From a virus (Duplodnaviria; Caudoviricetes), in IMG/VR virus record IMGVR_UViG_3300049988_000124, positions 160,001 to 224,000 of that record: a stretch of DNA of 64,000 nt. One strand, 5' to 3'. Under the pieces are notes generated by a model. The model had not been told where the DNA came from. It did no database searches and saw only the letters and a program-made list of their open reading frames with translations. Position numbers and translations under genes: made by a program. This document shows positions 8,327 through 51,741 of this stretch, piece after piece. The stretch's first letter is position 1, and every line of letters starts with the position of its first letter.

Positions 8327-8962
8327 TTACGCGCGCCGGTGGGCGACACCGACACCCAGGAGGGCACCGAAGCCGAGCCAGACGGCGTTGTTCTTCACCC
8401 AGTTGACGGTGTCGGTGCAGTTCTGCGAGAAGGTCTCGTAGATGCCCTGACGCTCGGCGGTCTTGGCCGCCTTCATCTCGAGCTTGGCGAGAAGCTCGGG
8501 TGCGAGCTCGTCCGGGTTGACCTGGCCGACGAAGTTGAGCTGCGAGAAGAAGCCGCCGCGCGTGAAGCCGTCGGGCCGGTAGTAGGAACCGTCCTGATCA
8601 GCGAAGCGGTAGCCGTCAGCGTAGAATCGCGAGCTCTCCGGCACGGTGCCGACGATCTTGCAGATCTGGTCGAGCCCGTTCAGATAGTAGCCGCCGATCT
8701 CGACGACTGCGTAGGGCGACTCGGGCGCGGGCTCCATGAAGGTGCACACGATGTCGTGAGCGTTCTTCTGCTCGACGGGCAGATCGCCCATCGTGCCGAC
8801 GACGCTGCCGTCCTCGCGGTAGTTGATGCCGTTGTCACCACGAAAACGGAAGCCGAGGTGATGCTCGGTCTCGTCCTCACCAAAGGCGTGGACCATGATG
8901 ACCTTGGCACCGACGGTGTCGACGAAGATGGTGCCGAGGGCGAGCTTGAGAGTATCGGACAT
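8327..8962 (-). CDS. Protein with two copies of the dispersed ~60-aa domain and a C-terminal membrane anchor (211 aa)
   Basis: FRGDNGINYREDG and FADQDGSYYRPDG copies; tail AVWLGFGALLGVGVAHRRA. Confidence 0.75.
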   Translation of the reverse strand: MSDTLKLALGTIFVDTVGAKVIMVHAFGEDETEHHLGFRFRGDNGINYREDGSVVGTMGDLPVEQKNAHDIVCTFMEPAPESPYAVVEIGGYYLNGLDQICKIVGTVPESSRFYADGYRFADQDGSYYRPDGFTRGGFFSQLNFVGQVNPDELAPELLAKLEMKAAKTAERQGIYETFSQNCTDTVNWVKNNAVWLGFGALLGVGVAHRRA

Positions 8963-8997
8963 GAGAGTATTCCTTTTTTCACTGATTGATGGGTGAT

Positions 8998-9031
8998 ACA
9001 TGACCTGAGGGCAAATGCCCTCAGGTCATGT
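8998..9031. terminator. Perfect 16-bp inverted repeat
   Basis: ACATGACCTGAGGGCA-aa-TGCCCTCAGGTCATGT. Confidence 0.7.
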
Positions 9032-9039
9032 GATGGGGT

Positions 9040-9747
9040 TTAATCGGGTGCAGTAACGAGCATCTGCCGTACCCAATCGGGCAGAGCGTTGAAGTTTTTG
9101 GTGGAGCGATCATGAATCTCGCCCTTCCACCTTACCCAATCCGACTGATGAGCTTCAACACCCTCAACAGCTCGGTCCCGATCACGCACAGAAGTTTGCG
9201 CGGCGAGCCAGGCGATGTCGTTCTTGAGCCACGGGTTCATGACCACACCTGCGGCCTTGAGTTGACTCATGATGTGGTTGAGGCCCTCGCGGACGTCGTG
9301 GTACCCTGCCCAGACCGGAGGCGGTGGATTCGCTTCACCTTCCTCGGGGTAGCGAACATAGGTACCCGAGCTAACTAGTGATCCTGGCATATGTCCACCG
9401 GTGGGTTGGAAGTTGTAGTGGAGATGAGCGACGTTGACCGACGGCTTACCGAATCCTTCCTTCTCGCCGTAGTCAGACGTGTAGGTGTCGAAGGTGAGGA
9501 GGAAACCGTCGCGGTGAGCGTAGACGTAGTAGGAGTCGGTACGCTCACGGCCGCAGTGGTTGTGCTGGAAGTCGTCCTTCAGCACCTGCTCGAAGCCCGA
9601 CTCGACGAACTTCTCCTGGTACTGCTCGAGGGACATACCGAAGTGGGTGTCACCCGACGACGTGAAGCTGTCGCGAAGCTCCTGGCGATCTTTCTCGTAT
9701 TGGAGACCGCTAGTCCACTCGTCCTCGTGTGGATTGTAGTAATCCAT
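9040..9747 (-). CDS. Hypothetical protein (235 aa)
   Basis: GAAAGGA RBS, strong codon bias. Confidence 0.75.
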   Translation of the reverse strand: MDYYNPHEDEWTSGLQYEKDRQELRDSFTSSGDTHFGMSLEQYQEKFVESGFEQVLKDDFQHNHCGRERTDSYYVYAHRDGFLLTFDTYTSDYGEKEGFGKPSVNVAHLHYNFQPTGGHMPGSLVSSGTYVRYPEEGEANPPPPVWAGYHDVREGLNHIMSQLKAAGVVMNPWLKNDIAWLAAQTSVRDRDRAVEGVEAHQSDWVRWKGEIHDRSTKNFNALPDWVRQMLVTAPD

Positions 9748-9761
9748 GACGTGTCCTTTCG

Positions 9762-10001
9762 TTAACGAAAATTCTTGGCGATGAACTTGGCGTGGTCACC
9801 GTACCAGGTAACAGGACGGTTATACGCGTAGCGACACATCGGAATATCGGTGAATTGCACTTCGATGCGTTCGAGCTCTAGACCATCTGCCTGAACGTTA
9901 AGTACGTCATCGGCGGAGTCGTTCATCTCCTCGATCTTTTTGTTCTCACCGACGTTGAGGAGTTTGTCGGAGTGTCCGTTACGCTTGTAGTAGAGTGCCA
10001 C
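9762..10001 (-). CDS. Hypothetical protein (79 aa)
   Basis: AAGGAG RBS, GTG start. Confidence 0.65.
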   Translation of the reverse strand: MALYYKRNGHSDKLLNVGENKKIEEMNDSADDVLNVQADGLELERIEVQFTDIPMCRYAYNRPVTWYGDHAKFIAKNFR

Positions 10002-10041
10002 CTTACTTCTCCTTGGTTAGCTATTGGACATCGACTGGGTG

Positions 10042-10170
10042 TCAGTTGCCCTGGTGTGAGATTCGGTGTACGATTTTTCGCACCTTTCTGTAGAACTTGG
10101 CAAGGCGATTATACCTTGCCAGCTTCCGCCTGTCAGAACGTCGACGGTTATTAGCTGTTTTCCATCTCAT
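10042..10170 (-). CDS. Very basic 42-aa peptide (MRWKTANNRRRSDRRKLARYNRLAKFYRKVRK...)
   Basis: Fills the gap between flanking genes; preceded by GGAAAAA. Confidence 0.5.
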   Translation of the reverse strand: MRWKTANNRRRSDRRKLARYNRLAKFYRKVRKIVHRISHQGN

Positions 10171-10208
10171 GGATTTTTCCCTGATTGTTTGCTGATAGTT
10201 TATAAAGA

Positions 10209-10232
10209 GGGTGGACTCCGAAGAACCCACCC
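10209..10232 (-). terminator. Intrinsic terminator with UUCG loop
   Basis: Minus strand GGGTGGGTTC-TTCG-GAGTCCACCC then TCTTT. Confidence 0.65.
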
Positions 10233-10245
10233 CAAATAGAAAATA

Positions 10246-10752
10246 TCAGTCCGGTTTGTAGACCGAGACGATGTTGTTCGCCGGGTCAGTGCTGAACATC
10301 TTCCTGCCGTCGGGAAGATAGCCCTTCTTGTTGGCGTCGTAGAAGCGGGGAAATTCGTCCTTGACTTCCTCGCAGATGAGAACGCGTCCGCCGTTACCGA
10401 GATTATACTCGGTGCCGACCCGAAGAGAGATGCCGGGCTTCTTGATCTCGATCATCCCGTTGGCATCCGCGTTGCGGTACGTATCATCGATCACGCGGAA
10501 GTGCTTGTCGGACTCCTCCCGGTCTTCCGGGCGGAGCGGAACGAGGCGGGTGATAGCACCGTTGTTGGTGAAGAGATCGTGAATGAACTCGGCTTCGATG
10601 AAACCGGTCATCGCACAACTCGACACAATGGTCCGGGTCTGGCGGAGACACTCCTCCAGTTCCGCGATGCGCTCCTTCAGCTTCGTGTTCTCCGAACGAA
10701 GAGGATTGTGTAGGAGACGATCTGCGAGCGTGGGTCCGTTATCATAGCTCAT
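10246..10752 (-). CDS. Coiled-coil N-terminus plus C-terminal copy of the dispersed ~60-aa domain (168 aa)
   Basis: LRVGTEYNLGNGGRVLI...FYDANKKGYLPDG...NNIV. Confidence 0.7.
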   Translation of the reverse strand: MSYDNGPTLADRLLHNPLRSENTKLKERIAELEECLRQTRTIVSSCAMTGFIEAEFIHDLFTNNGAITRLVPLRPEDREESDKHFRVIDDTYRNADANGMIEIKKPGISLRVGTEYNLGNGGRVLICEEVKDEFPRFYDANKKGYLPDGRKMFSTDPANNIVSVYKPD

Positions 10753-10770
10753 GATTTTTCTCCCTAGAAT

Positions 10771-11334
10771 TTACAAGAGATTGAGAGTCTTCCTAACGGC
10801 AACTTCAGCTGCTCGCTTGCGAAGATCTTCCCAGTCGTCACTGATGTACGTATAAAGCATGAACTGATCGAGTGTCTGACCTCCTGCCCATTTAGGGAAA
10901 GAGGTCATCTCTCCGACTGCTTGAGCTACGGCAGCGACAATTTCATCGAAATGGTCTGGGAGCGGTTGCTGCTCGACCTTTTGAGGAGTCGAGATAACTT
11001 CGATGAGATCGCCGGGTGAATGATAGACACCGGCGCTGCGGTGCCATCCATCCCAGTGACCGTTAGCGTCGTAACAGCGCGTATCGCTGCCGAGGAAGAG
11101 CGTGTCGGTCTCGTTCATCGAGACGATGGTGACGACTTCATCGATCGCGTTGCGGTAGATACCGCCGACGACGACCACGATAGGATCGCGCTTGCTGGCA
11201 GCGAGGAGCTTCAGCTTGGCGACGATCGTTGTTGCTTGCGACTTGGTGATCCGACCATCGAGGGCAGGATACGTCCCCATTGAGTCAAAGACGCTGTCGA
11301 CGGCTTCTTGGTGAGTCAGTTCATTGATGTTCAT
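10771..11334 (-). CDS. Protein with central copy of the dispersed ~60-aa domain (187 aa)
   Basis: VVVGGIYRNAIDEVVTIV...FLGSDTRCYDANG...GDLI; start refined behind AAGGAG. Confidence 0.7.
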   Translation of the reverse strand: MNINELTHQEAVDSVFDSMGTYPALDGRITKSQATTIVAKLKLLAASKRDPIVVVVGGIYRNAIDEVVTIVSMNETDTLFLGSDTRCYDANGHWDGWHRSAGVYHSPGDLIEVISTPQKVEQQPLPDHFDEIVAAVAQAVGEMTSFPKWAGGQTLDQFMLYTYISDDWEDLRKRAAEVAVRKTLNLL

Positions 11335-11420
11335 GATTACTCTCCTTGTTGATAGAGTTAAGACAGTATCTATTGCACCCGGACAGATGTTAAGTCCATT
11401 CGGATGCAAGGGTTAGTGTC

Positions 11421-11747
11421 TCAATAGTCGAACTTCTCACCCAGCGCAGTGAGGACGAGCACGAGACAGTCGAGAACGACCGCTACTTCATGCATTGCCC
11501 ACATGCGCCTGGAGACTTGCTCGAGCGCGGAGTTGTTGAGGTTCAACATGGGCGTGTACCCATCCTCCCCCTTAGTGCCCAGCGTGTAACCAGCAAGCAT
11601 GTCGACCTTCATCGAACTACTGTTGGTTATGTTGGCGACCAGCTGAACCTGGTCAAGACGGTTGAGGAGCGTTACCACCGCGACGTTGTCGGGGAAGAGC
11701 TTCGCTGTCTCTTGTACTTGGGTGATGATGTTTTTCTTGCTACCCAC
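11421..11747 (-). CDS. Hypothetical protein (108 aa)
   Basis: GGAG RBS, GTG start. Confidence 0.6.
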   Translation of the reverse strand: MGSKKNIITQVQETAKLFPDNVAVVTLLNRLDQVQLVANITNSSSMKVDMLAGYTLGTKGEDGYTPMLNLNNSALEQVSRRMWAMHEVAVVLDCLVLVLTALGEKFDY

Positions 11748-11759
11748 GATGTTTCTCCG

Positions 11760-11996
11760 CTATGACCTAGAAGCCAACCGTTCCCGGCTACGGCTGGCAC
11801 GTAGATCTCGGTTTTTGTCCACCAAGTAATCAGGGACGTTCACTTTGTCCTTGGTGACTTTGTGAGTCACTTTGGTTTTCATGGACATCACCCGGTACTC
11901 AGTAGCGTTGCTGGTATCCGACACGATCTCGAACTCCTCGCTTCCCAGGGACGGACAGAGAACGAGATCGTGTTTCTTAAGACGCATTGCTGGCAT
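11760..11996 (-). CDS. Small KOW/SH3-like protein (78 aa)
   Basis: LKKHDLVLC...FEIVS...YRVMS...HKVTKDKV beta-strand pattern. Confidence 0.55.
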   Translation of the reverse strand: MPAMRLKKHDLVLCPSLGSEEFEIVSDTSNATEYRVMSMKTKVTHKVTKDKVNVPDYLVDKNRDLRASRSRERLASRS

Positions 11997-11999
11997 CGG

Positions 12000-12239
12000 T
12001 CAGCTGATCTTCGAGAAGTGAATGAGGAAGGTCATCGGATCTCCGAAGATATCGAAGTAGATCACCTTCAACGTTGCCGTCCGTCCCTTGGCGTTCTCGA
12101 TCCTGACGACCCGTTCGGCCAGGCCGTCATACTCCTGAAGCTTCTCAGCCAGGTTGCGACACACCCTGGTCGTCAGACCAACGATACCTGCACTGCTGGC
12201 TGCCTTGAAGATTTCGTCGAAGAGTGGATTGTCAGACAT
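12000..12239 (-). CDS. Hypothetical protein (79 aa)
   Basis: AAGGA RBS, tight packing. Confidence 0.6.
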   Translation of the reverse strand: MSDNPLFDEIFKAASSAGIVGLTTRVCRNLAEKLQEYDGLAERVVRIENAKGRTATLKVIYFDIFGDPMTFLIHFSKIS

Positions 12240-12253
12240 CGTACTGGTCCTTG

Positions 12254-12472
12254 TTAGACGCGAACGAAGCCGTTAGCCTCAGCCTGCGCAGCAGCCGCTT
12301 CCCAGAGCTTGGCCTGGGCGGTGTGAAACGCGACTTTCGCCTTCAGGGCAAAGTAGCGCGGCGGATAGCCGTTGATCTGGTCGATCTCGAGCTTCAGGAT
12401 GTTCACCTCGACGCGGTGCTTGCGAGCGACGTTGCGGCGAGTGGTGGCACACATTTCGGTCAGCTTGGTCAT
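12254..12472 (-). CDS. Hypothetical basic helical protein (72 aa)
   Basis: GGAG RBS, strong codon bias. Confidence 0.6.
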   Translation of the reverse strand: MTKLTEMCATTRRNVARKHRVEVNILKLEIDQINGYPPRYFALKAKVAFHTAQAKLWEAAAAQAEANGFVRV

Positions 12473-12520
12473 CGAACTTACTCCTGGTTAGATGTGAAAA
12501 GGTGGGTTGTAGTGTTGGGG

Positions 12521-12826
12521 TTAGATGAGGTTCTTCCACTTGGGAGAGAACAACATGGCGCCGTGGTAGGTATGATCATACCGGTAGATGATAAAGATCG
12601 AACTGATCTCACCATCGACATCGGTGGTGGACGAGACGGCGTAAGCCATCTTGTTCATGACAAGTTCACCCCGCAAGGTTTTCAACTCGTAGAGCATGAC
12701 GTAGAAGGTTTCGGCCGTAATTTCGAAAGGAGAATATACCTCCCAATCCAGAAACGACTTCCAGGTCGGCTTGTGGCCGTCCATGTCGGTGATCTGATCA
12801 CCGGGTGTGACAGATTTAAGTGTCAT
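12521..12826 (-). CDS. Hypothetical protein (101 aa)
   Basis: GAAAGGAAG RBS before MTLKSV. Confidence 0.6.
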   Translation of the reverse strand: MTLKSVTPGDQITDMDGHKPTWKSFLDWEVYSPFEITAETFYVMLYELKTLRGELVMNKMAYAVSSTTDVDGEISSIFIIYRYDHTYHGAMLFSPKWKNLI

Positions 12827-12861
12827 GACATCTTCCTTTCTTAAAGAGTTAAAACGCACCT

Positions 12862-12905: not shown

Positions 12906-13052
12906 TTACTTCAGGAGGGCATCGCGCTGAGCCTTGAGGGCAGCGTATTTCTCCTGTTTGCGGGTAGGGAGATCGGCCAGACAGATCTCGTAGTCGCGAT
13001 CTGCGTCGTAGATTTTCTTCATCTCGTCCGTGAGTTCTTCGACTTTACTCAT
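12906..13052 (-). CDS. Small helical protein (48 aa)
   Basis: GAAAGG RBS before MSKVEE. Confidence 0.5.
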   Translation of the reverse strand: MSKVEELTDEMKKIYDADRDYEICLADLPTRKQEKYAALKAQRDALLK

Positions 13053-13071
13053 GATTTGAGCCTTTCCGAAT

Positions 13072-13608
13072 TTAGTCGCCGTAGAAATTCCCGTGGAGAT
13101 AATAATCCTCGGGATCGAATGGTTCGAACGCACCAACGACCACGGTTACCCCTGGACCATATTCCTTGGAAAGGAGCACGATGTGGGGGAGACCCATCGC
13201 CTTAGCGATAAGGTTGGTAACGCGGCGCATTGCGTCGCTCTGGGGTCGCCAGAACTCGAACATCTGATACTGCCGGGAGTTACACTGGTGAAACCACTGC
13301 AACTGCTTTGCCAGGTTCTTGTAGCAGAGTTGACGAAACTTCTCGATCTGCTCGATGTGGTCGGAGTAGAGCGTGAGACACACTCCCTTTCCTGGAACAG
13401 CATCACTCAAAACGAGCTGCTCTTTCTGGTCAGTGAAGAGTCGAGGATTTGCCTCAACGAACTCTATCACCTTTCCGAACTCGAGCAGGTTATCGACATC
13501 CGTGCCATCCGTGTCGATGGCAACGGCGTCGCGCAGGATCTGGTCAGCGGTCGGGATCGTGGTGTACCCGAAACGCAGACTGGTTTCCTGAAGACTCTTG
13601 GCGTCCAT
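13072..13608 (-). CDS. Hypothetical protein (178 aa)
   Basis: GAGGTG RBS. Confidence 0.7.
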   Translation of the reverse strand: MDAKSLQETSLRFGYTTIPTADQILRDAVAIDTDGTDVDNLLEFGKVIEFVEANPRLFTDQKEQLVLSDAVPGKGVCLTLYSDHIEQIEKFRQLCYKNLAKQLQWFHQCNSRQYQMFEFWRPQSDAMRRVTNLIAKAMGLPHIVLLSKEYGPGVTVVVGAFEPFDPEDYYLHGNFYGD

Positions 13609-16328: not shown

Positions 16329-16673
16329 TTAGGCGGGGACGGCGAGGTTGTCGTTGAGGACGAGCTCGCGCTGGGCGGTTGCGCCCTGGTTGACGTCACG
16401 CGCATCGATCCAGATACGGGTACGATGCATGTTGCTGATGCGGTTGCACATCAGGCGCAAGATGACCAGGCGACCGGAGACGACCGCGCCGTGATTGTCC
16501 TGCTTCTTGACCGGCACCCAGGCCAGGATCACGAAGGAACGGCTCCACCGACGGGTAGTGACCCCGGGCTGACGTCCGAGGACGATGCCGTAGTTGGTGA
16601 GGGGCGAGTACTGGGCGAGGAACCAGAAGGCGCGAAGGAGAACGCGGGCGAGCTGCTGAAGATAGATGTCCAT
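16329..16673 (-). CDS. Hypothetical protein (114 aa), 5' end overlapped by the acyltransferase
   Basis: GGAAAGG RBS before MDIYLQ; ends just before the hairpin. Confidence 0.55.
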   Translation of the reverse strand: MDIYLQQLARVLLRAFWFLAQYSPLTNYGIVLGRQPGVTTRRWSRSFVILAWVPVKKQDNHGAVVSGRLVILRLMCNRISNMHRTRIWIDARDVNQGATAQRELVLNDNLAVPA

Positions 16674-17719
16674 GGGAATGCCTTTCCGTTAAAGAGCCAC
16701 AGAGTAAGTGCAAACTTACTCACGATGAACTCGTGGACCATCCACGAGATCGAGAACGAACCAACCGTAAGAATTGTGAAAAGAAACACGGGATTGGTAA
16801 CTTGGGTACTCAGGAGATAGAATAAGATCCCGAGCACGGGAACGTGAAACAGGTACACCGAGAAGCCGGACTGGCTGAGGCGGCGTACCAGATCGTTATT
16901 CTCTTGAACCCTCAAGGCTGTTGCCAGCACCGTAAAGCTCATGAGAACAGCGACCAGGGACATGATGAATGTCCGCAAGACCTTAAAGGCCGCACTGGCA
17001 CTGGGATCAGCGACCATATAGTAGACCGCGTTATACCAGCACATCGCCCCTAGAAGCGCGAAGACTCCGACCCAAGCCCACCGCGTGGAGGACATCCACG
17101 CACATAGTCCTTCTTGTCGTGAGACGAAGAACCCGGCTAGGTAGAATACCGCGTAATAAGGGGTAAGGACCGCGATCGTCGGTAAGATCTGCTCCCACTG
17201 GAGGAGATAGAGGATACCCCTGGACAATTGCGCGTTGCCGGTGGCCAACACCACGACGCCGAGCAAGAAGTACTTCGGGTAGGCCTTGATCTTAGCGTTG
17301 ATCCACCCACTCAATCCCGATTCATCGAGCATGTAGCCGAGCGGCGTGATAATCGATAGGACCAGGAGAAACCAGAGATGGTAAGGATTGGCAAATGTGA
17401 AAGAGCCACCTTTGACATCAATGGTGAAGGGTAGCACGAAGAGCCAGACGGCGAACGTCGGCACCAAGAGCTGTTCCAGTCGACGACCAATCGAGTACCG
17501 ACCGGCCACTTGGAGTCTTGCCATAAGAAACCCACTGATCGCGAAGAATGCTTCCATGCGAAACAGGTGGCTGGCGAAGAGGAAGTTGTCTGCCCATTGT
17601 AGAGGGTGGGCAGGGCTAGAAATATAGGATACGCTGTGAATGAGGGGACCTGCTAGAAGCAGGAAAGCGCGCCACGCATCGACCCCCAATATTCGATGCG
17701 GACGCGTCGCGATGTCCAT
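16529..17719 (-). CDS. Acyltransferase family 3 (OpgC-like) polytopic membrane protein
   Basis: DAWRAFLLL..., HLFRMEAFFAISGF, R..QLLVP and HLWFL motifs; many hydrophobic helices; AGGAG RBS. Confidence 0.85.
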   Translation of the reverse strand: MDIATRPHRILGVDAWRAFLLLAGPLIHSVSYISSPAHPLQWADNFLFASHLFRMEAFFAISGFLMARLQVAGRYSIGRRLEQLLVPTFAVWLFVLPFTIDVKGGSFTFANPYHLWFLLVLSIITPLGYMLDESGLSGWINAKIKAYPKYFLLGVVVLATGNAQLSRGILYLLQWEQILPTIAVLTPYYAVFYLAGFFVSRQEGLCAWMSSTRWAWVGVFALLGAMCWYNAVYYMVADPSASAAFKVLRTFIMSLVAVLMSFTVLATALRVQENNDLVRRLSQSGFSVYLFHVPVLGILFYLLSTQVTNPVFLFTILTVGSFSISWMVHEFIVSKFALTLWLFNGKAFPWTSIFSSSPAFSFAPSGSSPSTRPSPTTASSSDVSPGSLPVGGAVPS

Positions 17720-18727: not shown

Positions 18728-18922
18728 TCAATCGACCTGGTGAACCAGGTCTTCCTTGTCGGGCATCGAGTAGAACATCCGACCTTCCATGGTGTAGGAC
18801 ATGCCGTTGTCACCGTTCCAGCGGTAGCGACCGCCGCCCTTGTTGTATGAAGTGATGGTGACCTTGGTCTTACCATCGGCGGTGGTGTAGGTCTTGCCGA
18901 CCTCCATCTTCACAGTGGTCAT
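18728..18922 (-). CDS. Stand-alone copy of the dispersed ~60-aa domain (64 aa)
   Basis: MEVGKTYTTADGKTKVTI...WNGDNGMSYTMEG...EDLV. Confidence 0.75.
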   Translation of the reverse strand: MTTVKMEVGKTYTTADGKTKVTITSYNKGGGRYRWNGDNGMSYTMEGRMFYSMPDKEDLVHQVD

Positions 18923-19714: not shown

Positions 19715-19912
19715 CTACTTGATGCCGACGATGTCGTGGGCGGGATCGATGCAAGCACCGTCGACTTGATAGACGACATCGTTGCTACCGATATAGTAGG
19801 CGATGCCGGTATCGTTACCGTCATAGCCACCATCAGCCAAGCTGTCGACGATCGTGACTTCGTTGCCGGAATCGGTCAGGTAAGTGACCCGCGACGGAAA
19901 CTCGATGATCAT
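19715..19912 (-). CDS. Stand-alone copy of the dispersed ~60-aa domain (65 aa)
   Basis: VTYLTDSGNEVTIV...YIGSNDVVYQVDG...HDIV; GAGGAGG RBS. Confidence 0.7.
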   Translation of the reverse strand: MIIEFPSRVTYLTDSGNEVTIVDSLADGGYDGNDTGIAYYIGSNDVVYQVDGACIDPAHDIVGIK

Positions 19913-19928: not shown

Positions 19929-20189
19929 TTACAGAGTCTTGGCGTGGACCTTGGCCCACTTGGTGTGCTGGTGGAAGTGGATGTCCCACAACCGAGCGCG
20001 CTCGCCCTCGCTCAGCCCGGCGTAGTCGCCGGACTGAGCAAACAGCTGACGCAGGATGCTCTGGTGATTGTCCATCTCCTCCTTGGCCTCCGCACGGATG
20101 CGAAGCAGCTTCACCTGCGCCGATGCACGGCGGGCAGCATGATAGGCGACGGTACCGAACACGAGCGTCTTGAGAATACGAATGATCAC
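19929..20189 (-). CDS. Small protein with N-terminal hydrophobic segment (86 aa)
   Basis: GAGGA RBS, GTG start at IIRILKTLVFG. Confidence 0.55.
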   Translation of the reverse strand: MIIRILKTLVFGTVAYHAARRASAQVKLLRIRAEAKEEMDNHQSILRQLFAQSGDYAGLSEGERARLWDIHFHQHTKWAKVHAKTL

Positions 20190-20220
20190 GAGATAATCCT
20201 CTTCGTTGATGGTGGGAGAG

Positions 20221-20514
20221 TTAGACCGCGCGGCCGAAGAGCTGGCGGGTGATGCCCATGACGAGCGTGCCGACTGTCTCCTCGACCGAGGCCCCCTTCT
20301 CGGGCAGTTCGCAGATGAGGTCATCCAAGGTCTGGCCCTGGGTGCTCATCCAATTGGCGTTGCCGTCCTCGGTGTAGCGAACACCGTTGTCGCCGAGGAA
20401 GGGACGGAACATGTCGTGGCCCTTGTCGAAGATGTCGGTCTTCATCACGATGCGCACGGGGCGGCAGGTACGAGTCTGGTAGGTCTTGTTGACCTCGAGC
20501 TGGAAACGATCCAT
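20221..20514 (-). CDS. Copy of the dispersed ~60-aa domain plus short tail (97 aa)
   Basis: LEVNKTYQTRTCRPVRIV...FLGDNGVRYTEDG...DDLI. Confidence 0.75.
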   Translation of the reverse strand: MDRFQLEVNKTYQTRTCRPVRIVMKTDIFDKGHDMFRPFLGDNGVRYTEDGNANWMSTQGQTLDDLICELPEKGASVEETVGTLVMGITRQLFGRAV

Positions 20515-23319: not shown

Positions 23320-23847
23320 ATGGCCAAACCAAAAAAGAAGGTAGAGATTGAGGCCAAACCTCTCTTTATCCCTCCCAATGCCATGCATCTGTGGGTCGAT
23401 GGATCCTTTCGTCCGCCTGACAATGCATCGTGTGCGTACCTGATCTTCTCCGAGAAGAGCAAGCACGTCGTTGCCATGGAGTGTCTTGCCTACCGGGGCA
23501 AGACCATTAACCAGATGGAATTAGAGGCCATCAACAAAGGCCTCGATAATCCCGGTGACTATTTCATCATCCACTCCGACAGTCAATATTCCATCTCTGC
23601 GCTAACCTTGTGGCACAAGTCATGGGAGCAGCATGGTTGGATGACGCCCAATGGTGAGCCTGTTAAGAACAAAGAGCTCATCCAGTCGATCTTGAAAAAG
23701 ATGCGTACCAAGAAGTTCGTCCGGTTCGTTAAAGTCAAGGCCCACACCGGTATCCCGCTCAATTCCGTTGTTGATTATTTAGCACAAGAACTCTCTGCGA
23801 AAATGAGAGATAATCCCAAAATCACCCAGCTAACTCTGGCAGCTTGA
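23320..23847 (+). CDS. rnhA: Ribonuclease HI
   Basis: VDGS, TINQMELEA, SDSQY, W..HGW...G.PVKNKEL and KVKAHTG...N..VD.LA motifs. Confidence 0.92.
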   Translation: MAKPKKKVEIEAKPLFIPPNAMHLWVDGSFRPPDNASCAYLIFSEKSKHVVAMECLAYRGKTINQMELEAINKGLDNPGDYFIIHSDSQYSISALTLWHKSWEQHGWMTPNGEPVKNKELIQSILKKMRTKKFVRFVKVKAHTGIPLNSVVDYLAQELSAKMRDNPKITQLTLAA

Positions 23848-23853
23848 GGTATA

Positions 23854-23881
23854 TAGACAGGTCCCAGCTGGGACCTGTCTA
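23854..23881. terminator. 28-bp perfect palindrome
   Basis: TAGACAGGTCCCAG|CTGGGACCTGTCTA. Confidence 0.65.
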
Positions 23882-23924
23882 CCTCTTCATTGTATGACCA
23901 CATTTTCCACTAGAAGGATACGTA

Positions 23925-25052
23925 ATGTCTGACGTTGCTCAGGAAATCTCTACCGACTACGATATCGACAGCCAGCCCGTTCGTGACATCGAAGACCCGC
24001 TGGGTGAGTGCGATCAGGAGATGATTGAGATCGAGTCGCTCGACCAGGAGATCGACCAGCTGATGCAGGTAACGATCGCGATCGAGAATTACGGCATGGA
24101 TCCCAGCACCTTCGGTGTCCTGAAGGCAACCAATCTTCTCTCGGGTACCTCACTCGACGTTCTGGGGATGGAGAACTTTGCTAACCAGGATGCGGACAAG
24201 CTAGAGTCCGCTATGGCCACTGAGTCACTTATTGAGAAGATCAAGGAGAAGGCTGCTGCCTGGGCTGCTAAGATCATCGGTTTCACCAAGTCCTCGCTCA
24301 ACGCTGTTCTGGGAATGCTGACCAAGATCAAGGATCAGATTGTCGAGAAGGGCACAGCGCTCGTCACGGCAACCTGGGACGCAGCGAAGTCCGGTGCTCG
24401 CGTAGTCAAGGCTCACCCGTACAAGACAGTTATTGCAGCGATCGGTACAGCGGCTGCCATCATGGGCGTGGTTGCATTGATGGCTGCTCCTGGTACTTAC
24501 GCCAGTGTTGACTCACTGAGGGCATTCGCCGTTAAGCTGCGCGATGCGGTCGCTAACATCAAGCCTCCCTTCAACAAGGTAAAGGTTGAGATGGTGGATG
24601 GTAAGTTCTTCAACTCCGCAATCGTAGTCGACGTCGCCAATGGTGTTGAAACCGTGACATCGACGACCGCGATTACTACGACGTATAGTCAGGTTGAGCT
24701 TGGTTGGACACAGTCGGCCGTGAAGCTCGCGCTTGCTCAGTTCAGTAAGCTCTGGAATACCACCAAAGCAGCGCTGACTGCAATTCCTGGTAAGGTCGTA
24801 GAGATCGCCAAGAAGATCAACAACATGGGTGGTGGTGATGCAGCTACCAGTGTTCAGAACGTGGTGGCTGAGAAGACTGGCTCACCACTCACCGGTTGGG
24901 CTGCTAACAAGGTTGTTGACAGGATCTACACCACGCTACTCTTCAGCATCGTGGGTGTTGTTTACTCACTCTTGAAGGACGTGGTCCTGAAGGCATATCG
25001 CAGTGTTCAGGAAACCTTTGGTGCGCTAAAGGCTGAACCCAAGACGACATAA
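23925..25052 (+). CDS. Putative phiKZ-type internal head (ejection) protein with acidic propeptide (375 aa)
   Basis: Acidic N-terminus ending LGMENF...AMATESLIEKIKE, followed by an amphipathic and hydrophobic body; TATGAC upstream. Confidence 0.65.
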   Translation: MSDVAQEISTDYDIDSQPVRDIEDPLGECDQEMIEIESLDQEIDQLMQVTIAIENYGMDPSTFGVLKATNLLSGTSLDVLGMENFANQDADKLESAMATESLIEKIKEKAAAWAAKIIGFTKSSLNAVLGMLTKIKDQIVEKGTALVTATWDAAKSGARVVKAHPYKTVIAAIGTAAAIMGVVALMAAPGTYASVDSLRAFAVKLRDAVANIKPPFNKVKVEMVDGKFFNSAIVVDVANGVETVTSTTAITTTYSQVELGWTQSAVKLALAQFSKLWNTTKAALTAIPGKVVEIAKKINNMGGGDAATSVQNVVAEKTGSPLTGWAANKVVDRIYTTLLFSIVGVVYSLLKDVVLKAYRSVQETFGALKAEPKTT

Positions 25053-39540: not shown

Positions 39541-40485
39541 CTATTCGGAATCGGAAGGAGCACGGTAGAACGCTGCAGCTGACACCGCTGATAGATACAT
39601 ACGTCCTCGCATGGAGACGCCCTGATAATCATCGTCGGTGAACAGTTTCACTGTTTGCTGAAGCGGGAAGGGGATTGCTGCCAATGTACCATCGGACAGA
39701 TTGAGTTCTTGGTCAAGATCGACCAGGTTGGTGTCGCGACGCTGCGGCTCCTTACTCAGATCACCCAGCAGAAGCTTGGTGATGACCCACAAGATCTTAA
39801 GCGCAGATCGTGCTCGGTTCTTGTAGGTAGCCTCACGGCCTGAGTAATTTGCCTCACGACGAAGAAGATCAACGAGTTCCTCGACCTGCTTCATGAGATA
39901 AACCCATGACGTCTCTACTGGGGACGAGTAACCTTCCTGACCCTGCAGCTGAACAAGGAGCAGTTCAGCATCCGTTGCCACATCAGACAAGTTCGTGACC
40001 AAGGCACCAGTCACACTGTGACGCAGACCGTGGTCATGGATTGCCGTGTCATTATTCAGCGCCTTCTTCAGACGCTTCAGGAAGGTAACAGGGGGAACGT
40101 AATAATGACGCCGTGCCTCATCAGCGTTGAACGTCACGAACGACTCAGGATTACGCACATCGCCGTTCGAGATAGCGACCACGCGGGCCGCGATCAAGCG
40201 GTGGAGTTCCTGACCGTAGAGGTAGATGTTCTTGGAGATCGACTGATTCATGAACCCACGAAGACTCGTGGGCAGGATCTTGAGCTCGAGTGCTCGCTGG
40301 GTGATCGCTTTGATGTCCTCATCATTGAACGTGGTAACGCCCGCCGACATGACATAGAGCCGCTTCAACCCTGACCCAGGGGTCAACTGACCTTCACCAG
40401 AAATCAGATCGAGGTAGGTCTTGACTGCCCACACGAAGTTATTCGCAGGAGCAATGGTTTGGGAAACAAGCGGCTCTTTACTCAC
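39541..40485 (-). CDS. Putative virion structural protein (314 aa)
   Basis: Coupled gene within the structural block. Confidence 0.55.
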   Translation of the reverse strand: MSKEPLVSQTIAPANNFVWAVKTYLDLISGEGQLTPGSGLKRLYVMSAGVTTFNDEDIKAITQRALELKILPTSLRGFMNQSISKNIYLYGQELHRLIAARVVAISNGDVRNPESFVTFNADEARRHYYVPPVTFLKRLKKALNNDTAIHDHGLRHSVTGALVTNLSDVATDAELLLVQLQGQEGYSSPVETSWVYLMKQVEELVDLLRREANYSGREATYKNRARSALKILWVITKLLLGDLSKEPQRRDTNLVDLDQELNLSDGTLAAIPFPLQQTVKLFTDDDYQGVSMRGRMYLSAVSAAAFYRAPSDSE

Positions 40486-47200: not shown

Positions 47201-47636
47201 TGCGCGCTCCATGGGGTCAGCAGACTTTGGTGTCGGTGGTAAAGAGATCCGCAACATGTCACTGGGTCTGGGCTTTAGTGTCCTTATCTACGTGGATGCG
47301 GCAGTCTACAACACGCAGACGCTTCTAAACACGATGGAGGCAACGGTGAGGGATATCATCAATGCTGAGATCCAGAAGCCAACGATCTCTGTCTCTGCGA
47401 TCACCGAAACCATCCGGAGTCGCTTGGGCACCAATGCTGCGGCTGTTGAGATGGGACCCATCTCAGGCGTGGACGGGCTGAGGCTTATCTCAATTAACCA
47501 GGCCAACATTACGCCTAGCATCGAGAACAAGTTGATCGTGGAATCAGATGGAAACATCAAGCGTGTTCCCAACATCACGGTTACCTACCTACCAAAGCCT
47601 GATACGGCCGAGATGGTAGCAAAGACTACACTCTGA
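44256..47636 (+). CDS. Large baseplate (wedge-like) protein (phiKZ gp87-like, 1126 aa)
   Basis: Size and position; VELYTTKG...AGG...YEEVRDAI wedge-like segment; internal beta-repeat insertion. Confidence 0.6.
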   Translation: MFMFDSTSFTQDMLSNPNKLTKVVVDAMERSDATGQVLISDPNNGFVIQLSAFLAVQAKMSEKIDNTVSYMFPQRARNAEQLYVHLSEFEYHKLMASPATLPFAFAMDADWIRANGVYYDTNYNRLVIPSTSYITMGGVVYSMYHDIEILINRNTGAITAYYDGSSTNTLNQLASNMLIDVQEFARDGLNWFQIEFNMYQFERQILSYTVAREQGFDKTISFEDQFYAAKVFNKAPGGEWTELAYSLSKQFYDPKKPTAVIQLLTDTSEIKIKIPQVYFDNNQISQNIRVELYTTKGKVNYSISAADVNDRQANFDTSSSSFAAPFEQMPTWRIFPTAIEVAGGSDVSPYEEVRDAIVNQQLSDRVAVTQNEITKKGKHNGFDLTRLKDDLTERIYLASNVLVDSTNMIIPTFTGGILIKDEALEGNPSTIINHTDGYYTILPTTTFKIADNGNTCIPMTDGDVTAMAGMTKQQLVNELNSGNYVRQPFHVTLQTNPKSPQTLIYNLLDPQMKSLAFIAENPNSAPQMSVTACNVTHLDNGTGGYRVTLGITRSSNIESEDVSNFRVIFSCPNKGGEYVYLPATYVSTTPEGLDVWEVMLRTNYHLTSDDYLTVEMFDSNDLLSGVEVSINQTFSITTAFVGSFEPTIPIDVSLNSFIPDSVRDQLVAMARQTMKLQLGQNLSSQIFCAVNTSWGNDVYKTADETVYYKNSHPIYQTTPDTGVVNTRTNAAGTKPEVVLIYPIDSTPSDLADLVIGVTEDVLPSAGSTTTYKIASTKGLLVGMKARGTNVPAGSVIFSVGPNTVTLNKKITKVVTKGTAITFTNPSPVLSVSTAQSTAGTQVKVASTADLLIGQSVYGFDIPTGAKVKTIDSGTQFTLTVATTKALAKDTLITVINTTAPGVVKIAPGDIVTDASGKAIVVKSAQNQYLIPSILFDGRLFASEDPIDQEIITTIAGRLNNFANQVSTIDAGLIEDADVYYKPARSMGSADFGVGGKEIRNMSLGLGFSVLIYVDAAVYNTQTLLNTMEATVRDIINAEIQKPTISVSAITETIRSRLGTNAAAVEMGPISGVDGLRLISINQANITPSIENKLIVESDGNIKRVPNITVTYLPKPDTAEMVAKTTL

Positions 47637-47649
47637 TAAACATGAAGGT

Positions 47650-47683
47650 GATAAGAGGGAGGGCATTAGCCCTCCCTCTTATC
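47650..47683. terminator. 15-bp inverted repeat between convergent genes
   Basis: GATAAGAGGGAGGGC-atta-GCCCTCCCTCTTATC. Confidence 0.8.
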
Positions 47684-47685
47684 GA

Positions 47686-49308
47686 TTAGGCGTGCGACAG
47701 ATCAGCTGCCGTGATGTAGTTGAAAGCGTCACCAATCGCGAGCGATGCAACCGTGGCGGCACGAGCGTGCTGCGAGAACTCGCTCTCCGCATTCAGGTGG
47801 TTCACGAACACGTCCGTGGCCTTCTGGACGAAGCTGTCACCGCTGGCCTGAGCCAGCATGGAGATCAGTTCCTGATCCATCCGGATCTCGCTCTTACCAT
47901 TCGTCAGTTCCTGTGAGAACTTGCTGATGGTCTGGTTGAGCGCCAGCGGAATGGTATCGACGTTGCGTGCACTCAGGACAGACTGCACAGCATCACGCGT
48001 GATGCGACCAGCTTCCTGACGGATGACGGCTGCGTCATTATCGCGCAGGCGCTGGAGACGATTGCTATCCTCGGCCATGACCTGGGGAATAACATTCTCC
48101 CGGCGATCCAGAACGTACTGGAGCGACCAACCATTGGCCGAGGCAGGCATACCTGCACGCGGATCGAGATGGAGACCAAACTGCACCAGCTCTGCATCCG
48201 TACCACTGGATGCACGGTAGTTAGCGATGTTGTCCGCGTTCACGAACACGTCGACCTTGGGATCTGCGCCCTCAGCGGCCACACCCATGATAAGCGTGCT
48301 AGCAAAGCGCGTCTCGCGCATCGCCTCGTAGCCGACCAGCGACATGGTCACGGCCTCGACGGCCTGGCTGATCCGCTCCACGGTCTGATCGCTGATCGCC
48401 ATGTCGTCCTGGCGAACCTGCGTGGCAGCCTGAAGATGCTCCAGGAGTTTCATCACCGTGCTCATGTCAGCGACGTTCGCCATCATGGCCTTGGGATCGT
48501 TGCGGCTCTTGTCCCAGTGGTTAATGTGCTGGCGCTGCTGGCCCGAGGAGAACAAGAAGCTATTGAGCTGCGCTTCAGTGAACGAACCCAGGAGCTGCGA
48601 CACTTCACCCTCGGGAGCCTGGCCCAGGAGGAAGGTGATCTCGGCCTGGGCATTCAGACGAGCCGACTCATCGAGCGTCTTGAACGAGGCTGCCTGATGG
48701 GCAAAGTTGAACGCCTGGTTCGCCCAACCAACGGTCGGAACGTGATCGGCCTTGAAGATACCAGCACGGTCATTGGCGCGGTTGAGCGCCGCGTTCAGCC
48801 ACATGCCGTCGTTCAGGATTCCCCAGCTAAAGAGGTTGAACGAACCACCGGTCTCGGTGTTCGACGAGCGAGCCTGGGCTGCCTGCTGGATGAGACGAGC
48901 TGTCGTATCAGCGTTCTTGCCGATCGTGCCGATCACCGTCTGGTCCACCGTGGTACGGTAGAGGTCAGCGGAACCGTAGGTGATGTTCGAGAGCTCGGCG
49001 TGATGGATCGAGGGAAGCGCTGAGACCTGGTCCCAGACATCGCGCGATTCTGCGTTCTCGATGTTGTTCTCGACGGCGAACTGAGCGCACTCGTAGAGGA
49101 AGCGACCAACCGTCGAGGTATTACCGATCGACAGTGATTCGGTCGCGATCTTGGTGGAGACCTCGGTCTCGATGAGAGACGTCAAAACATCCTGGGGGAT
49201 GGAGTGTGAGCCACGCAGGTGACCCATGACGTTGACAGCGAAATCCTTGATGAAGAACTGAGCGTACGTGTTCGCCAGCTCCAGAATCGGATCAATCTTG
49301 CGGTTCAT
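47686..49308 (-). CDS. Putative virion head protein (540 aa)
   Basis: IATESL processing-like motif near the N-terminus; strong codon bias. Confidence 0.55.
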   Translation of the reverse strand: MNRKIDPILELANTYAQFFIKDFAVNVMGHLRGSHSIPQDVLTSLIETEVSTKIATESLSIGNTSTVGRFLYECAQFAVENNIENAESRDVWDQVSALPSIHHAELSNITYGSADLYRTTVDQTVIGTIGKNADTTARLIQQAAQARSSNTETGGSFNLFSWGILNDGMWLNAALNRANDRAGIFKADHVPTVGWANQAFNFAHQAASFKTLDESARLNAQAEITFLLGQAPEGEVSQLLGSFTEAQLNSFLFSSGQQRQHINHWDKSRNDPKAMMANVADMSTVMKLLEHLQAATQVRQDDMAISDQTVERISQAVEAVTMSLVGYEAMRETRFASTLIMGVAAEGADPKVDVFVNADNIANYRASSGTDAELVQFGLHLDPRAGMPASANGWSLQYVLDRRENVIPQVMAEDSNRLQRLRDNDAAVIRQEAGRITRDAVQSVLSARNVDTIPLALNQTISKFSQELTNGKSEIRMDQELISMLAQASGDSFVQKATDVFVNHLNAESEFSQHARAATVASLAIGDAFNYITAADLSHA

Positions 49309-49365
49309 GAAGAAAATGCCTTGTGTGTGAAAAAATAGGGAGCCATAATATTTCGAAAACGACCA

Positions 49366-51387
49366 TTAACCTCTGGGTAGTCCTCGTCCACCGGACGTAA
49401 CTGTGGACACCATACGCGAGATCAACAAGCGTGATCCGCCCTCCATACCCATCATGAAGGGGCTGAGTTTGTTCTTGTAAATGGTGGACAAGAGGATCTG
49501 TGTCTTGCGACGAATTGACCGGAACGGAGCCAGTCGATCGCGCAGACCCATGCCCGACAAGGTCAGCATGTATTCACCAAAGTTATCGTCGGTCCCGAAC
49601 ACTCGAGCAGCGATACCACGGTCACCACCCATGCTCATGTACATGGCAGGCGTCAGATCCTTCAAGGTCACGTTCATGGTGAGCTTTAGAGGAAGACGAG
49701 CCATGTTAAAGCCGTACTGGTCAGCACCACGACTAACCTCGAGCGACTCGATCATGCAGAGAGGTGAGGAGAACATACCACGACAGTAAGCCTGACAGAT
49801 GAAAGGCGCTGAGTGTGATGCTTCACCGGTACCACGGGGCAGTGAGCCTGCCAAAATACATGCCAGGGGAACGTACTCGGACATGAAGATTGATTCAACA
49901 TCTCCGTACGGTGACAGACAGGTGATTGAGAATGATGCAGAGCGTGACCACGCACTACCCATCCAAACCTCAGGAATGTCTACCTTGGCAGCACCAGTAA
50001 GAGTAGCAGCCAGTGGATCGAGCTTGAAGGTATTCGACACACCAGCACCAACCGCCTTAATCGCGTTAACGAAGTCGGTCATCATGCCAGCGATACCGCC
50101 GCTACCAAAGTTACCACCCATCGAGTCGAACTGTACAGAGCGACCCTGCTGGAACTTCTCGTTGGCGAGCATTGCTACCTGAGACTCACCCGTCTGGTTA
50201 GAGAATGACTCAGTGGCACCCATGCCCTTGTCAATGCGGAAGCCAATAAAGAGGTGACCATCGTAGATCGCATCCTTATACGCGCCCTTGAATGCATCGA
50301 ACCAACCCATGTCCCAGAACTTGTCGAGTGGATTCTCTTCTGTGCCTTCTGATCCTGCGTTGTTGGTCTGGTTGGAATCAGGATTTGTTGATGTTTCAGG
50401 ATCGGGCTTGTCAGCGATGCCGTTACCATTGTTGGTGGTGCGCGCTGCCTCAAACATGGCGAAGTCAGTGTTGCGACGCTTCTGTGACTTGTCGGAACCA
50501 TGTTCGTAGAAGTAGCGCTTGGACATGATCTGTGCCATATCCAAACCATCCTTGAAGAGGTCCGGCATACCCGAGACGTCGTGGGTCGGCTTAGTGCCGT
50601 ACTTCAACTGCTCGAGAGGGGTGACGTCCGAAGTCTCAGAACCAGTTAGATTGATGTCATCATTCGACAACATCATGTTCATGTTGGTCGCCAGGTGTAC
50701 CAAGATCGTGTTGACGAAGCGGAAGTACATCGGCATCTGCGAAGAGAACGAATAGTATTTCGAGATCTTCACCGTACTGATTGTGTCAGTGATGGCCTTG
50801 ATGAACTTGAACGGAATAGTAGCGATCTTGATCAGAACGATTGGTGCTGCACCCAGGAGGTAGCCGATCTTCTGGGGCGTGATGTTGGAGCCTTTGTTAA
50901 TGAAGTTGGCCATGTCCCGGTCAACCGCGCTAGCCCAGAAGCTACCAACGTTACTGAAAACAGGAATGCCGAAACCTAGGTAGAGGATCTGCTGGGTGTC
51001 ATCGAAGTTCTCCGAGTAGATCCGTCCCATGCCAACACCAGTGCCTGCCTTGGTCTCGAAGTGGGGATGAACAATGTCATCATCGACCGAGAACTGGGGA
51101 AGTGGGTTGATGGCATCGTTACCACCAAGCGAGGTATCACGGCACTTACTGCGAGAGAAGTAATAAGGCAGGGGCTTGTTACCCTTGCCGCCCTCGTCGT
51201 CCAGATTCCCGCGAAGGATCTGATTCATCGCACTGTCGAATTCTTTCTGACCTTCATCGACCTTGACCGCTTGTGCGTACTGCATGATCTGCTGGTAGGT
51301 ACTGAACTGAGTACCAATGTTGACCATGAAACAACCACGAATGAAGTTGTCTGATGCTGGCCTTTGTACGTTCTTTAGGGTAATCAT
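49366..51387 (-). CDS. Putative virion structural (tail/baseplate) protein (673 aa)
   Basis: DTSLGGNDAINPLPQF and CLSPYGD...RG motifs; located in the structural block. Confidence 0.55.
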   Translation of the reverse strand: MITLKNVQRPASDNFIRGCFMVNIGTQFSTYQQIMQYAQAVKVDEGQKEFDSAMNQILRGNLDDEGGKGNKPLPYYFSRSKCRDTSLGGNDAINPLPQFSVDDDIVHPHFETKAGTGVGMGRIYSENFDDTQQILYLGFGIPVFSNVGSFWASAVDRDMANFINKGSNITPQKIGYLLGAAPIVLIKIATIPFKFIKAITDTISTVKISKYYSFSSQMPMYFRFVNTILVHLATNMNMMLSNDDINLTGSETSDVTPLEQLKYGTKPTHDVSGMPDLFKDGLDMAQIMSKRYFYEHGSDKSQKRRNTDFAMFEAARTTNNGNGIADKPDPETSTNPDSNQTNNAGSEGTEENPLDKFWDMGWFDAFKGAYKDAIYDGHLFIGFRIDKGMGATESFSNQTGESQVAMLANEKFQQGRSVQFDSMGGNFGSGGIAGMMTDFVNAIKAVGAGVSNTFKLDPLAATLTGAAKVDIPEVWMGSAWSRSASFSITCLSPYGDVESIFMSEYVPLACILAGSLPRGTGEASHSAPFICQAYCRGMFSSPLCMIESLEVSRGADQYGFNMARLPLKLTMNVTLKDLTPAMYMSMGGDRGIAARVFGTDDNFGEYMLTLSGMGLRDRLAPFRSIRRKTQILLSTIYKNKLSPFMMGMEGGSRLLISRMVSTVTSGGRGLPRG

Positions 51388-51459
51388 AACGGGTCACTTC
51401 CTACTACGAGGAGTTTATACTGGTTCACACATTATTGTCACCCTTTACCCATCGGTGCT

Positions 51460-51741
51460 ATGGTACAAGAAAGGAAAGTGGTAATGAATGATAAGAAATT
51501 GATCAAAGGTGAAACATACGTCAACGGATTTGGTGAAATTATTGCGGTCGATACCGTTATCAAATTAGCCCCTATGAACGCTGATAAAACTCCTGCAGTT
51601 GAGGAGACTTTGTTCGTAGGTCACACAGGGACCATCTACTACGCCGACGGGGTCACTTTCCAAATCGATGAGATTCTTATCGACAAGAATGATCGCGCCA
51701 AGGATAGCGCACACAATTTGATCTACCAAGTTGTTAAGTGA
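51460..51741 (+). CDS. Isolated copy of the dispersed ~60-aa domain (about 93 aa)
   Basis: LIKGETYVNGFGEII...FVGHTGTIYYADG...AHNLIYQV. Confidence 0.65.
   Translation: MVQERKVVMNDKKLIKGETYVNGFGEIIAVDTVIKLAPMNADKTPAVEETLFVGHTGTIYYADGVTFQIDEILIDKNDRAKDSAHNLIYQVVK

Follow-up and report, generated by a model that had tools for sequence, protein, structure and literature searches.

An unnamed domain family, predicted to form a small beta-barrel, recurs in a chimallivirus-like jumbo phage and in phages broadly

We analyzed a 64,000-nucleotide stretch of phage DNA (hereafter the window), which comprises bases 160001-224000 of one 307,821-bp virus record (IMG/VR IMGVR_UViG_3300049988_000124; CheckV, 100% complete), for a short domain that recurs in seven of its open reading frames (ORFs), here designated A to G in their order along the window. 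A preliminary description, made from the sequence alone, had listed eight segments of this kind and had proposed that they form an SH3-like barrel with variable loops, combined with shuffled partners. We find that at least 15 copies in the genome, eight of them within the window, almost certainly belong to one homologous family of ~60–80-residue domains. Structural modelling indicates that the domain very probably folds into a small beta-barrel of the SH3/Tudor/KOW topological class.

The seven ORFs and their eight segments of ~60–80 residues lie at the coordinates first reported for them, and the segments align with the signature given there. In our alignment of the eight window copies this signature reads h-x-h-G-x-x-Y ... 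G-x-x-V-x-I ... F-x-G-x-x-G-x-x-Y-x-x-DG ... D-L-V. Pairwise BLAST was weak among the copies, with E about 1e-5 as its best value against a database of the seven proteins, and conclusions were therefore drawn from profiles. The genome search set consisted of 3,663 six-frame stop-to-stop ORFs of the 307,821-bp genome, and the same ORFs, reversed, served as decoys. A hidden Markov model (HMM) of the eight window copies retrieved three genome ORFs on which it had not been trained, at E-values of 1e-12 to 9e-8, whereas the best reversed decoy scored E 5.7. These ORFs lie at genome positions 157996-158841 (two copies, E 1e-12), 23699-23983 (E 9e-8) and 39573-40139 (two copies, E 9e-8). Iterating the search led immediately to convergence, with 14 domains found in 11 ORFs; the best-scoring decoy had E 1.8. 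A 15th copy, at genome 245485-246159, fell just below the iteration threshold and was added to the resulting profile (profile A1), which returned all 15 copies, in 12 ORFs, from the whole genome; a 16th candidate at genome 6381-6614 is borderline.

In leave-one-out searches with the 8-copy HMM, ORFs A, D, F and C were recovered at E 6e-8 to 8e-3, and B, E and G weakly, at E 0.2–0.9 and ranks 5–8. With the 14-copy profile, every ORF ranked first among the untrained ORFs (E 6e-13 to 5e-3). Chance similarity of the copies was rejected on the basis of the decoys and the leave-one-out searches. The preliminary description had made its claim depend on the copies recovering one another by profile search, and this they do; the alignment and HMM search of the genome that it had proposed also uncovered further members, bringing the family to the 12 ORFs given above.

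The sequence of ORF D, which consists of the domain by itself, was modelled with AlphaFold 2 (AF2) from an alignment of only the 15 in-genome copies. The model is all-beta, with a predicted local distance difference test score (pLDDT) of 89 and a predicted template modelling score of 0.73, and contains strands at 11–14, 20–27, 34–37 and 59–63, plus bridges. It has the ~60 residues and the four to five antiparallel strands of the small beta-barrel class. As had been noted at the outset, the core is fixed and the loops vary, with insertions falling between strands 2 and 3 and between strands 4 and 5. Conserved aromatic residues occupy strand 1 (Y), strand 3 (F, W or Y) and strand 4 (Y). The 275-residue two-copy paralogue was modelled as two barrels (pLDDT 85–95), preceded by a disordered N-terminus and followed by a C-terminal helix. 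This two-barrel model found no matching tandem arrangement among solved or Swiss-Prot structures, and is unlike any solved tandem Tudor.

A Foldseek search of the ORF D model against the PDB returned nothing below E 0.1, and a profile search of PDB sequences returned nothing below E 0.02, the matches there being short loop matches. In an exhaustive VIA-align search the best neighbour, at Z 5.3, was a 47-residue subunit of the methyl-coenzyme M reductase activation complex, followed at Z 4.3–4.6 by the FlgD Tudor-like, BAH, CarD N-terminal, UvrD C-terminal Tudor and Spt5 KOW domains. Barrels of the SH3/Tudor/KOW class account for nearly all of the highest-ranking solved neighbours (Z 4–5.3) and, together with the AF2 model, they place the domain in that class, bearing out the proposal of an SH3-like barrel. 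The barrels of CarD (4l5g), UvrD (7egs), Spt5 (4zn3) and FlgD (3c12) are likewise ~60-residue, all-beta, modular, non-catalytic and often arranged in tandem. They superimpose on the ORF D model at Z 4.3–4.6, with a root-mean-square deviation of 2.4–3.1 Å over 48–52 residues, but they are unrelated to it by sequence and these scores lie in the range of generic similarity. The comparisons gave no evidence in the phage domain of the aromatic cage, proline-peptide groove or RNA-polymerase contact of the named Tudor, SH3 and RNA-polymerase-interacting systems. Predicted structures provided much closer matches, to uncharacterized proteins. In BFVD these matches, at a template modelling (TM) score of about 0.6–0.78, were with phage proteins, from Brucella phage EF4, Sinorhizobium phage phiN3, Synechococcus phage S-CBWM1, Stenotrophomonas phage Salva, Burkholderia phage Mica and Escherichia phage EcS1. 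The ESM Atlas gave TM 0.76–0.80 to viral hypothetical clusters. The matches in AlphaFold DB, likewise within TM 0.7–0.8, are uncharacterized bacterial proteins, two of which are named for a ribosomal L7/L12 C-terminal domain located elsewhere in the chain.

Within the window the domain occurs in several protein architectures. ORF A (8327..8962, minus strand) encodes 211 residues from an ATG at 8962 and carries two HMM-delimited copies (copy A1, 8726..8959, and copy A2, 8507..8719, both minus strand), a helical linker and a short hydrophobic C-terminal tail. ORF B (10246..10752, minus strand; 168 residues) has a helical or coiled-coil N-terminal part followed by one copy at 10249-10440. In ORF C (10771..11334, minus strand; 187 residues) the copy at 10981-11190 is flanked by helical segments. 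ORFs D (18728..18922, minus strand; 64 residues) and E (19715..19912, minus strand; 65 residues) are stand-alone domains, E being strongly acidic with an isoelectric point (pI) of 4.05. ORF F (20221..20514, minus strand; 97 residues) combines the domain (20293-20514) with a C-terminal extension of ~27 residues, and a near-identical protein (P0051) is present in other metagenome samples. ORF G (51484..51741; 85 residues), in which the domain has long loop insertions, is the sole window copy on the plus strand. Most of the family genes have good ribosome-binding sites, and the public collection includes gene calls for A, B, D, E, F and G.

All of the ORFs first reported are present, but the likely starts of three of them are shifted to an ATG with a ribosome-binding site. 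That of ORF A moves from 9001 to 8962, in agreement with public gene call P0003 (211 residues), and a palindromic hairpin sits directly upstream of position 9001. That of ORF C moves from a TTG at 11409 to 11334, and that of ORF G from 51460 to 51484. The membrane tail ascribed to ORF A stands in part: the C-terminus is hydrophobic, but it holds only 15 Gly-rich hydrophobic residues (8342..8386, minus strand, as read from the sequence), followed by basic residues, which is short for a membrane span. The tail is nevertheless plausible as a possible tail anchor. In a hydropathy scan the strongest 19-residue hydrophobic window of the protein was not that of the tail; longer hydrophobic tails occur in family members outside this genome. 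The same scan found no N-terminal signal-like hydrophobic segment in any paralogue. They are therefore likely to be cytoplasmic proteins, and ORF A may be anchored by its tail.

A search of 1.84 billion representative proteins with the 15-copy profile returned 760 clusters at E<=1e-3, 90 of them at E<=1e-10. Among the best 153 of the 760, a set to which the window proteins themselves and a small number of cluster mates belong, 28 proteins contained one detectable copy, 97 two, 20 three, 5 four, 2 five and one eight. The expansion is thus not peculiar to this genome, as had first been supposed, since the domain is found in phages broadly and mostly as tandem arrays of 2–8 copies. Phages of the present clade nonetheless have an unusually large set of these genes, and have kept it. 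The signature typical of the family is LEVGKxY-x-R-x-G-x-x-V-x-I ... (Y)PF-x-G-d-n-G-x-x-Y-x-x-d-G ... DLVEE. In the canonical external copies it reads LEVGKxY-x-R-x-G-x-x-V-x-I ... PF-x-G-D-N ... Y-x-E-x-G ... DLV-x-E, and these are more regular than the copies in this phage. When the window-genome profile A1 was compared by hhalign with a profile of canonical external copies (A3), the two matched over 63 columns with a probability of 99.6% and E 6e-24. This profile–profile match, together with reciprocal recovery, places the window copies in the un-named 'LEVGKxY...DLVEE' phage repeat family.

Searching with the A3 profile identified gp272 of phiN3 (AKF13539.1, E 4.6e-11) and gp51 of S-CBWM1 (ATW62735.1, E 1e-6), both annotated as hypothetical and located among small hypothetical genes. 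Each of these two genomes has one detected match (E<=0.01), in contrast to the 12-ORF family of the present phage; for EcS1, EF4, Salva and Mica the resemblance is by predicted fold only. A profile search of phiKZ, Psa21, RP31, Moabite, Parshik and EcS1 did not detect the domain, and the same search finds all 15 copies in the genome under study. A tblastn search of 50,697 phage records with ORF A and a four-copy external relative gave no match, because short, diverged single domains lie below the reach of BLAST; the profile did find phiN3 and S-CBWM1. A word-based homologue search with ORF A returned only ORF A itself.

Pfam analysis of 141 external matches revealed dGTP_diPhyd_N (4 proteins), DUF6378 (3) and DUF1599 (3) as the only real partners. 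We take these to be related helical domains of the nucleotide-hydrolase type, on the strength of their Pfam descriptions. Clustering of the tails that lie outside the domain recovered the same partners, plus a group with a hydrophobic tail like that of ORF A and the coiled-coil orthologues of ORF B. In the present genome DUF1599 had no match; DUF6378 and dGTP_diPhyd_N had none either, a result that is uninformative as the control genomes were equally blank. All of the external contexts inspected were replication or accessory regions of phages or prophages, with DNA polymerase A, 5'-3' exonuclease, RNA ligase, ThyX, RNase H, PhoH and primase as neighbours, and in one prophage a DUF6378 gene lies close to the domain gene.

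No Pfam, NCBIfam or annotated PHROG family covers the domain, in keeping with the original statement that no named family fits. Window proteins had no match in Pfam (E<=1), PHROGs (E<=0.1) or NCBIfam; the Pfam copy searched is presumed, from accession numbering, to hold PF24203 and PF23835, and may lack PF26890 (Phage_HP1_YO09). Mapping of the HMM to a well-characterized family, which would have undone the claim, amounts at most to a weak resemblance to DUF4222 (PF13973), which is short, has no assigned function and is mentioned in article texts but not in paper titles or abstracts. This likeness concerns the N-terminal hairpin (G-x-x-Y-x-x-R-x-G-x-x-V-x-V) of some external relatives, is confined to about the first 25 profile positions and reaches E<=1e-3 in 5 of the 141. 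Relative P0005 attains 30.3 bits, against a gathering cut-off of 27 bits, as a sum over partial N-terminal matches, no single stretch of which passes alone; the window proteins do not reach the cut-off and have no DUF4222 match even at E<=1. External multi-copy relatives match the PHROGs phrog_22518, 23578, 9138, 4781 and 1153 (P0001 to phrog_22518 at E 1e-22), all of them unannotated. Phage_ProQ_C_like (PF24203) and DUF7205 (PF23835) appear in a minority of members of the ESM Atlas look-alike clusters, and are absent from the window proteins (E<=1) and from the 141 relatives (E<=1e-3). A term search found no mention of the domain in a comparative review of jumbo phages (PMC7824862). On these comparisons the domain is best described as a new domain of unknown function (DUF), that is, an unnamed sequence family inside a well-known fold class. 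Separately, a role in cell-wall binding of the SH3b (lysin) kind was considered and rejected, as there was no SH3_3- or SH3_5-type Pfam match, no signal peptide and no lysin fusion among the 141 relatives.

The history of the gene cluster can be read from related metagenome contigs. In one of them, of 270,626 bp (L013), a 20.6-kb piece contains nine copies distributed over seven ORFs, whose order matches that in the window and which lie beside the same RNA-polymerase gene block. Its orthologues of ORF A, ORF B and the two-copy protein are 39%, 51% and 35% identical to ours, and the neighbouring non-family genes 25–63%. The two-copy protein of a closer relative (L012) shares 49% identity with ours, and the neighbours there 27–83%, mostly about 45–60%. 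From the conserved synteny and this ordinary divergence it follows that the cluster is old, retained and not conspicuously faster-evolving than its surroundings. The shuffling of partners described earlier is seen between these phages, the same genes having different fusions in L013: the ORF B orthologue (L013 6851-7987) has an extra N-terminal copy compared with window 10246-10752, and at L013 631-1089 the domain is fused to a homologue of window ORF 12906-13136, which is domain-free here. Two sub-types, one with an E-Y-x-x-G-F-R-F insertion before strand 3 and the other with a shorter YPF form, occur both inside and outside the genome, and part of the paralogy therefore predates the phage clade. 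A search of the viral contig collection with the two-copy protein found no related loci.

The genome codes for multisubunit RNA polymerases with split, phiKZ-type subunits, which together with a virion structural protein (see below) identify the phage as a distant, uncultivated chimallivirus-like (phiKZ-like) jumbo phage. They include a beta fragment at window 2939-4366 (minus strand; phrog_2962) and a 1521-residue virion RNA-polymerase beta-like protein (gene at window 51780-56345, minus strand) with 24–31% identity to its counterparts in Erwinia, Ralstonia, Serratia and Pseudomonas jumbo phages. Further beta fragments are encoded in the genome, as is a subunit like phiKZ gp149 (virion RNA-polymerase gene at genome 157244-157906, minus strand), just before the window. 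At least 60 cluster representatives, 60–81% identical to the gp149-like protein, are encoded on metagenome contigs of 254–290 kb, and the phage therefore belongs to a large uncultivated environmental clade. Megablast of the region against phages gave no match, and a literature search returned nothing on chimalliviruses of Alphaproteobacteria; the Ochrobactrum jumbo phage (PMC7139368) is a 227-kb T4-like phage distinct from the present one.

The genome contains the motif TATATTAC, which occurs 24 times on the minus strand and not once on the plus strand, almost always 20–110 nt above a minus-strand ORF. It is, by its distribution, a strongly strand-biased promoter-like motif that heads many transcription units. 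It is putatively the phiKZ early-promoter consensus; a literature text search retrieved no phage promoter paper. Two members of the family encoded outside the window are found in short units that have the motif at their head. In the window it occurs only at 1531-1538 (minus strand), there is none between genome 161,538 and 239,200, and none lies within 58 kb upstream of the cluster of ORFs A to F. Early, host-takeover timing of the window copies can therefore not be assumed.

We favour a reading in which the domain would be a rigid, non-enzymatic binding or adaptor module, with proteins as likelier targets than nucleic acids. It would tether its fusion partner, namely a hydrophobic tail, a coiled coil or helical domains in this genome and a nucleotide-hydrolase-related domain in other phages, and the stand-alone copies would act as small binders. 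The paralogues would probably have distinct, non-redundant targets, because the multi-gene cluster is ancient and retained in the clade. Consistent with a binder, the conserved columns of the alignments comprise a hydrophobic and aromatic core, turn glycines and turn aspartates, and none looks catalytic. Net charge is negative in 69% of 320 copies (median pI 5.3), and this predominance of acidic copies favours protein binding over general nucleic-acid binding. Several points weigh against this reading. About 22% of the copies are basic, including one in the genome outside the window with a pI of 10.4, and given these copies nucleic-acid binding by some members is possible. The idea of a binder derives entirely from fold, conservation pattern and architecture. 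The likeness to solved barrels is weak (Z about 4–5) and can reflect merely a shared arrangement, and the conserved aromatic residues may be core residues. Taken jointly, one family with a barrel fold acting as a non-enzymatic binder is a package that we consider moderately probable; for the binding or adaptor role of the domain alone, we put the chances at about even.

The binder reading has to be weighed against more specific roles. In one of these the domain would be a Tudor/KOW-like module directed at RNA polymerase or nucleic acid, comparable to the RNA-polymerase-interacting domains of CarD, TRCF and UvrD, to NusG/Spt5 KOW and to the ProQ C-terminal domain, and its paralogues would modulate the phage multisubunit RNA polymerases or bind RNA. 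CarD, the UvrD C-terminal Tudor and Spt5 KOW are indeed among the best structural neighbours (Z 4.3–4.4, with Z 4.4 for the RNA-polymerase-interacting domain), and a minority of the ESM Atlas look-alike clusters carry Phage_ProQ_C_like, but the structural scores are within generic barrel similarity, and the window proteins have no CarD_TRCF_RID, KOW or ProQ-type Pfam match even at E<=1. Gene order also speaks for a polymerase connection: the window cluster borders the RNA-polymerase gene block, and in this phage and three related contigs the two-copy family gene (genome 157996-158820, minus strand, just before the window) lies immediately upstream of the gp149-like gene, an adjacency kept even in a contig whose upstream genes differ. 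This is a weak lead to such a connection, in line with the CarD, UvrD and KOW fold neighbours; it is weak because the pair sits inside a conserved syntenic block, and phiKZ-type phages have the gp149 gene without the two-copy neighbour, five reference chimalliviruses lacking the domain. A complex prediction for the two-copy paralogue and the gp149-like subunit (score 0.05, mark 0.32) speaks neither way. Most copies are, moreover, acidic, and we judge a polymerase- or nucleic-acid-directed role to be distinctly unlikely.

An anti-defence or host-takeover arsenal, which the preliminary description had put forward, would use the differing loops to neutralize or mimic host or defence proteins, or would serve as a nucleotide-signal sponge. 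The proteins have the appearance expected of it, being multi-copy, loop-variable, small, often acidic and encoded in accessory regions of many phages, and the recurring fusion to or neighbourhood of dGTP_diPhyd_N, DUF6378 and DUF1599 hints at a link to the nucleotide pool. The two members in short TATATTAC-headed units would also suit this role, but the window cluster has no such motif within the 58 kb upstream. Furthermore, the domain has no similarity to any known anti-defence protein, no conserved polar, pocket-like residues are evident in the alignments, and the orthologues are no more diverged than their neighbours in a syntenic cluster, unlike an arms-race hotspot. Such an arsenal is doubtful, although a takeover role overlaps with the binder model and is not exclusive of it. 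Alternatively, the family might contribute to structure or assembly, as components of the virion, inner body or nucleus shell or as assembly chaperones, and would then be expressed late, together with the neighbouring virion and virion-RNA-polymerase genes. The A–F cluster does lie in the 161–239-kb stretch that is free of TATATTAC and holds virion RNA-polymerase and structural genes, and ORF G is situated between a virion structural protein gene (window 49366-51387, minus strand; phrog_3181/20401) and the 1521-residue virion RNA-polymerase beta gene. In other phages, however, the domain is found in replication or nucleotide-metabolism regions, and its fusion partners are related to nucleotide hydrolases and are not structural proteins. 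The virion architecture is, moreover, common to the five reference chimalliviruses, and these lack the domain. We consider a structural role highly improbable.

The binder reading can be carried further, to a programmable scaffold whose loops, differing from one paralogue or tandem copy to the next, would each bind a separate component of the host, of its defences or of the phage polymerase; this we regard as a rather slim prospect. Under it the 12-gene set would amount to an arsenal of specific inhibitors or adaptors that the clade has kept, with one member reserved for the virion RNA polymerase, an idea that we offer as similarly speculative. If specific binding were true, a 64-residue, confidently folding and loop-tolerant barrel would open a view on jumbo-phage takeover and provide a compact natural scaffold. 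At present the domain stands as a solid new domain of unknown function and not as a demonstrated system. It marks hundreds of 'hypothetical' phage protein clusters, and its definition would annotate a slice of phage dark matter and flag tandem arrays and fusions, such as those with dGTP_diPhyd_N, DUF6378 and DUF1599. Phages phiN3 (Sinorhizobium) and S-CBWM1 (Synechococcus) offer cultured entry points.

Two other genes are interspersed with the family genes of the window. In the middle of the cluster, at window 16529-17719 (minus strand), lies a gene of the Acyl_transf_3 family (E 2.7e-23), encoding a multi-pass membrane protein of 396 residues; it represents an O-acyltransferase-type gene in a jumbo phage. 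Between ORFs E and F, an ORF at 19929-20324 (minus strand) partially overlaps with F in another frame. Its orthologue in L013 is 39% identical over 87 residues, and it is probably a real gene that starts later than the longest ORF. Finally, a palindromic hairpin, GAGGGC-N4-GCCCTC, occurs 18 times in the genome (21 times in a relaxed form), compared with 0–2 times in shuffled genomes. One lies at window 9007..9022, between ORF A and its upstream gene, and another at window 51749..51764, directly after the stop codon of ORF G. Others are found at genome 23667, 39543, 157965 and further sites, several of them directly 3' of family genes. Its placement suggests that the hairpin is probably a terminator or an RNA-processing element.

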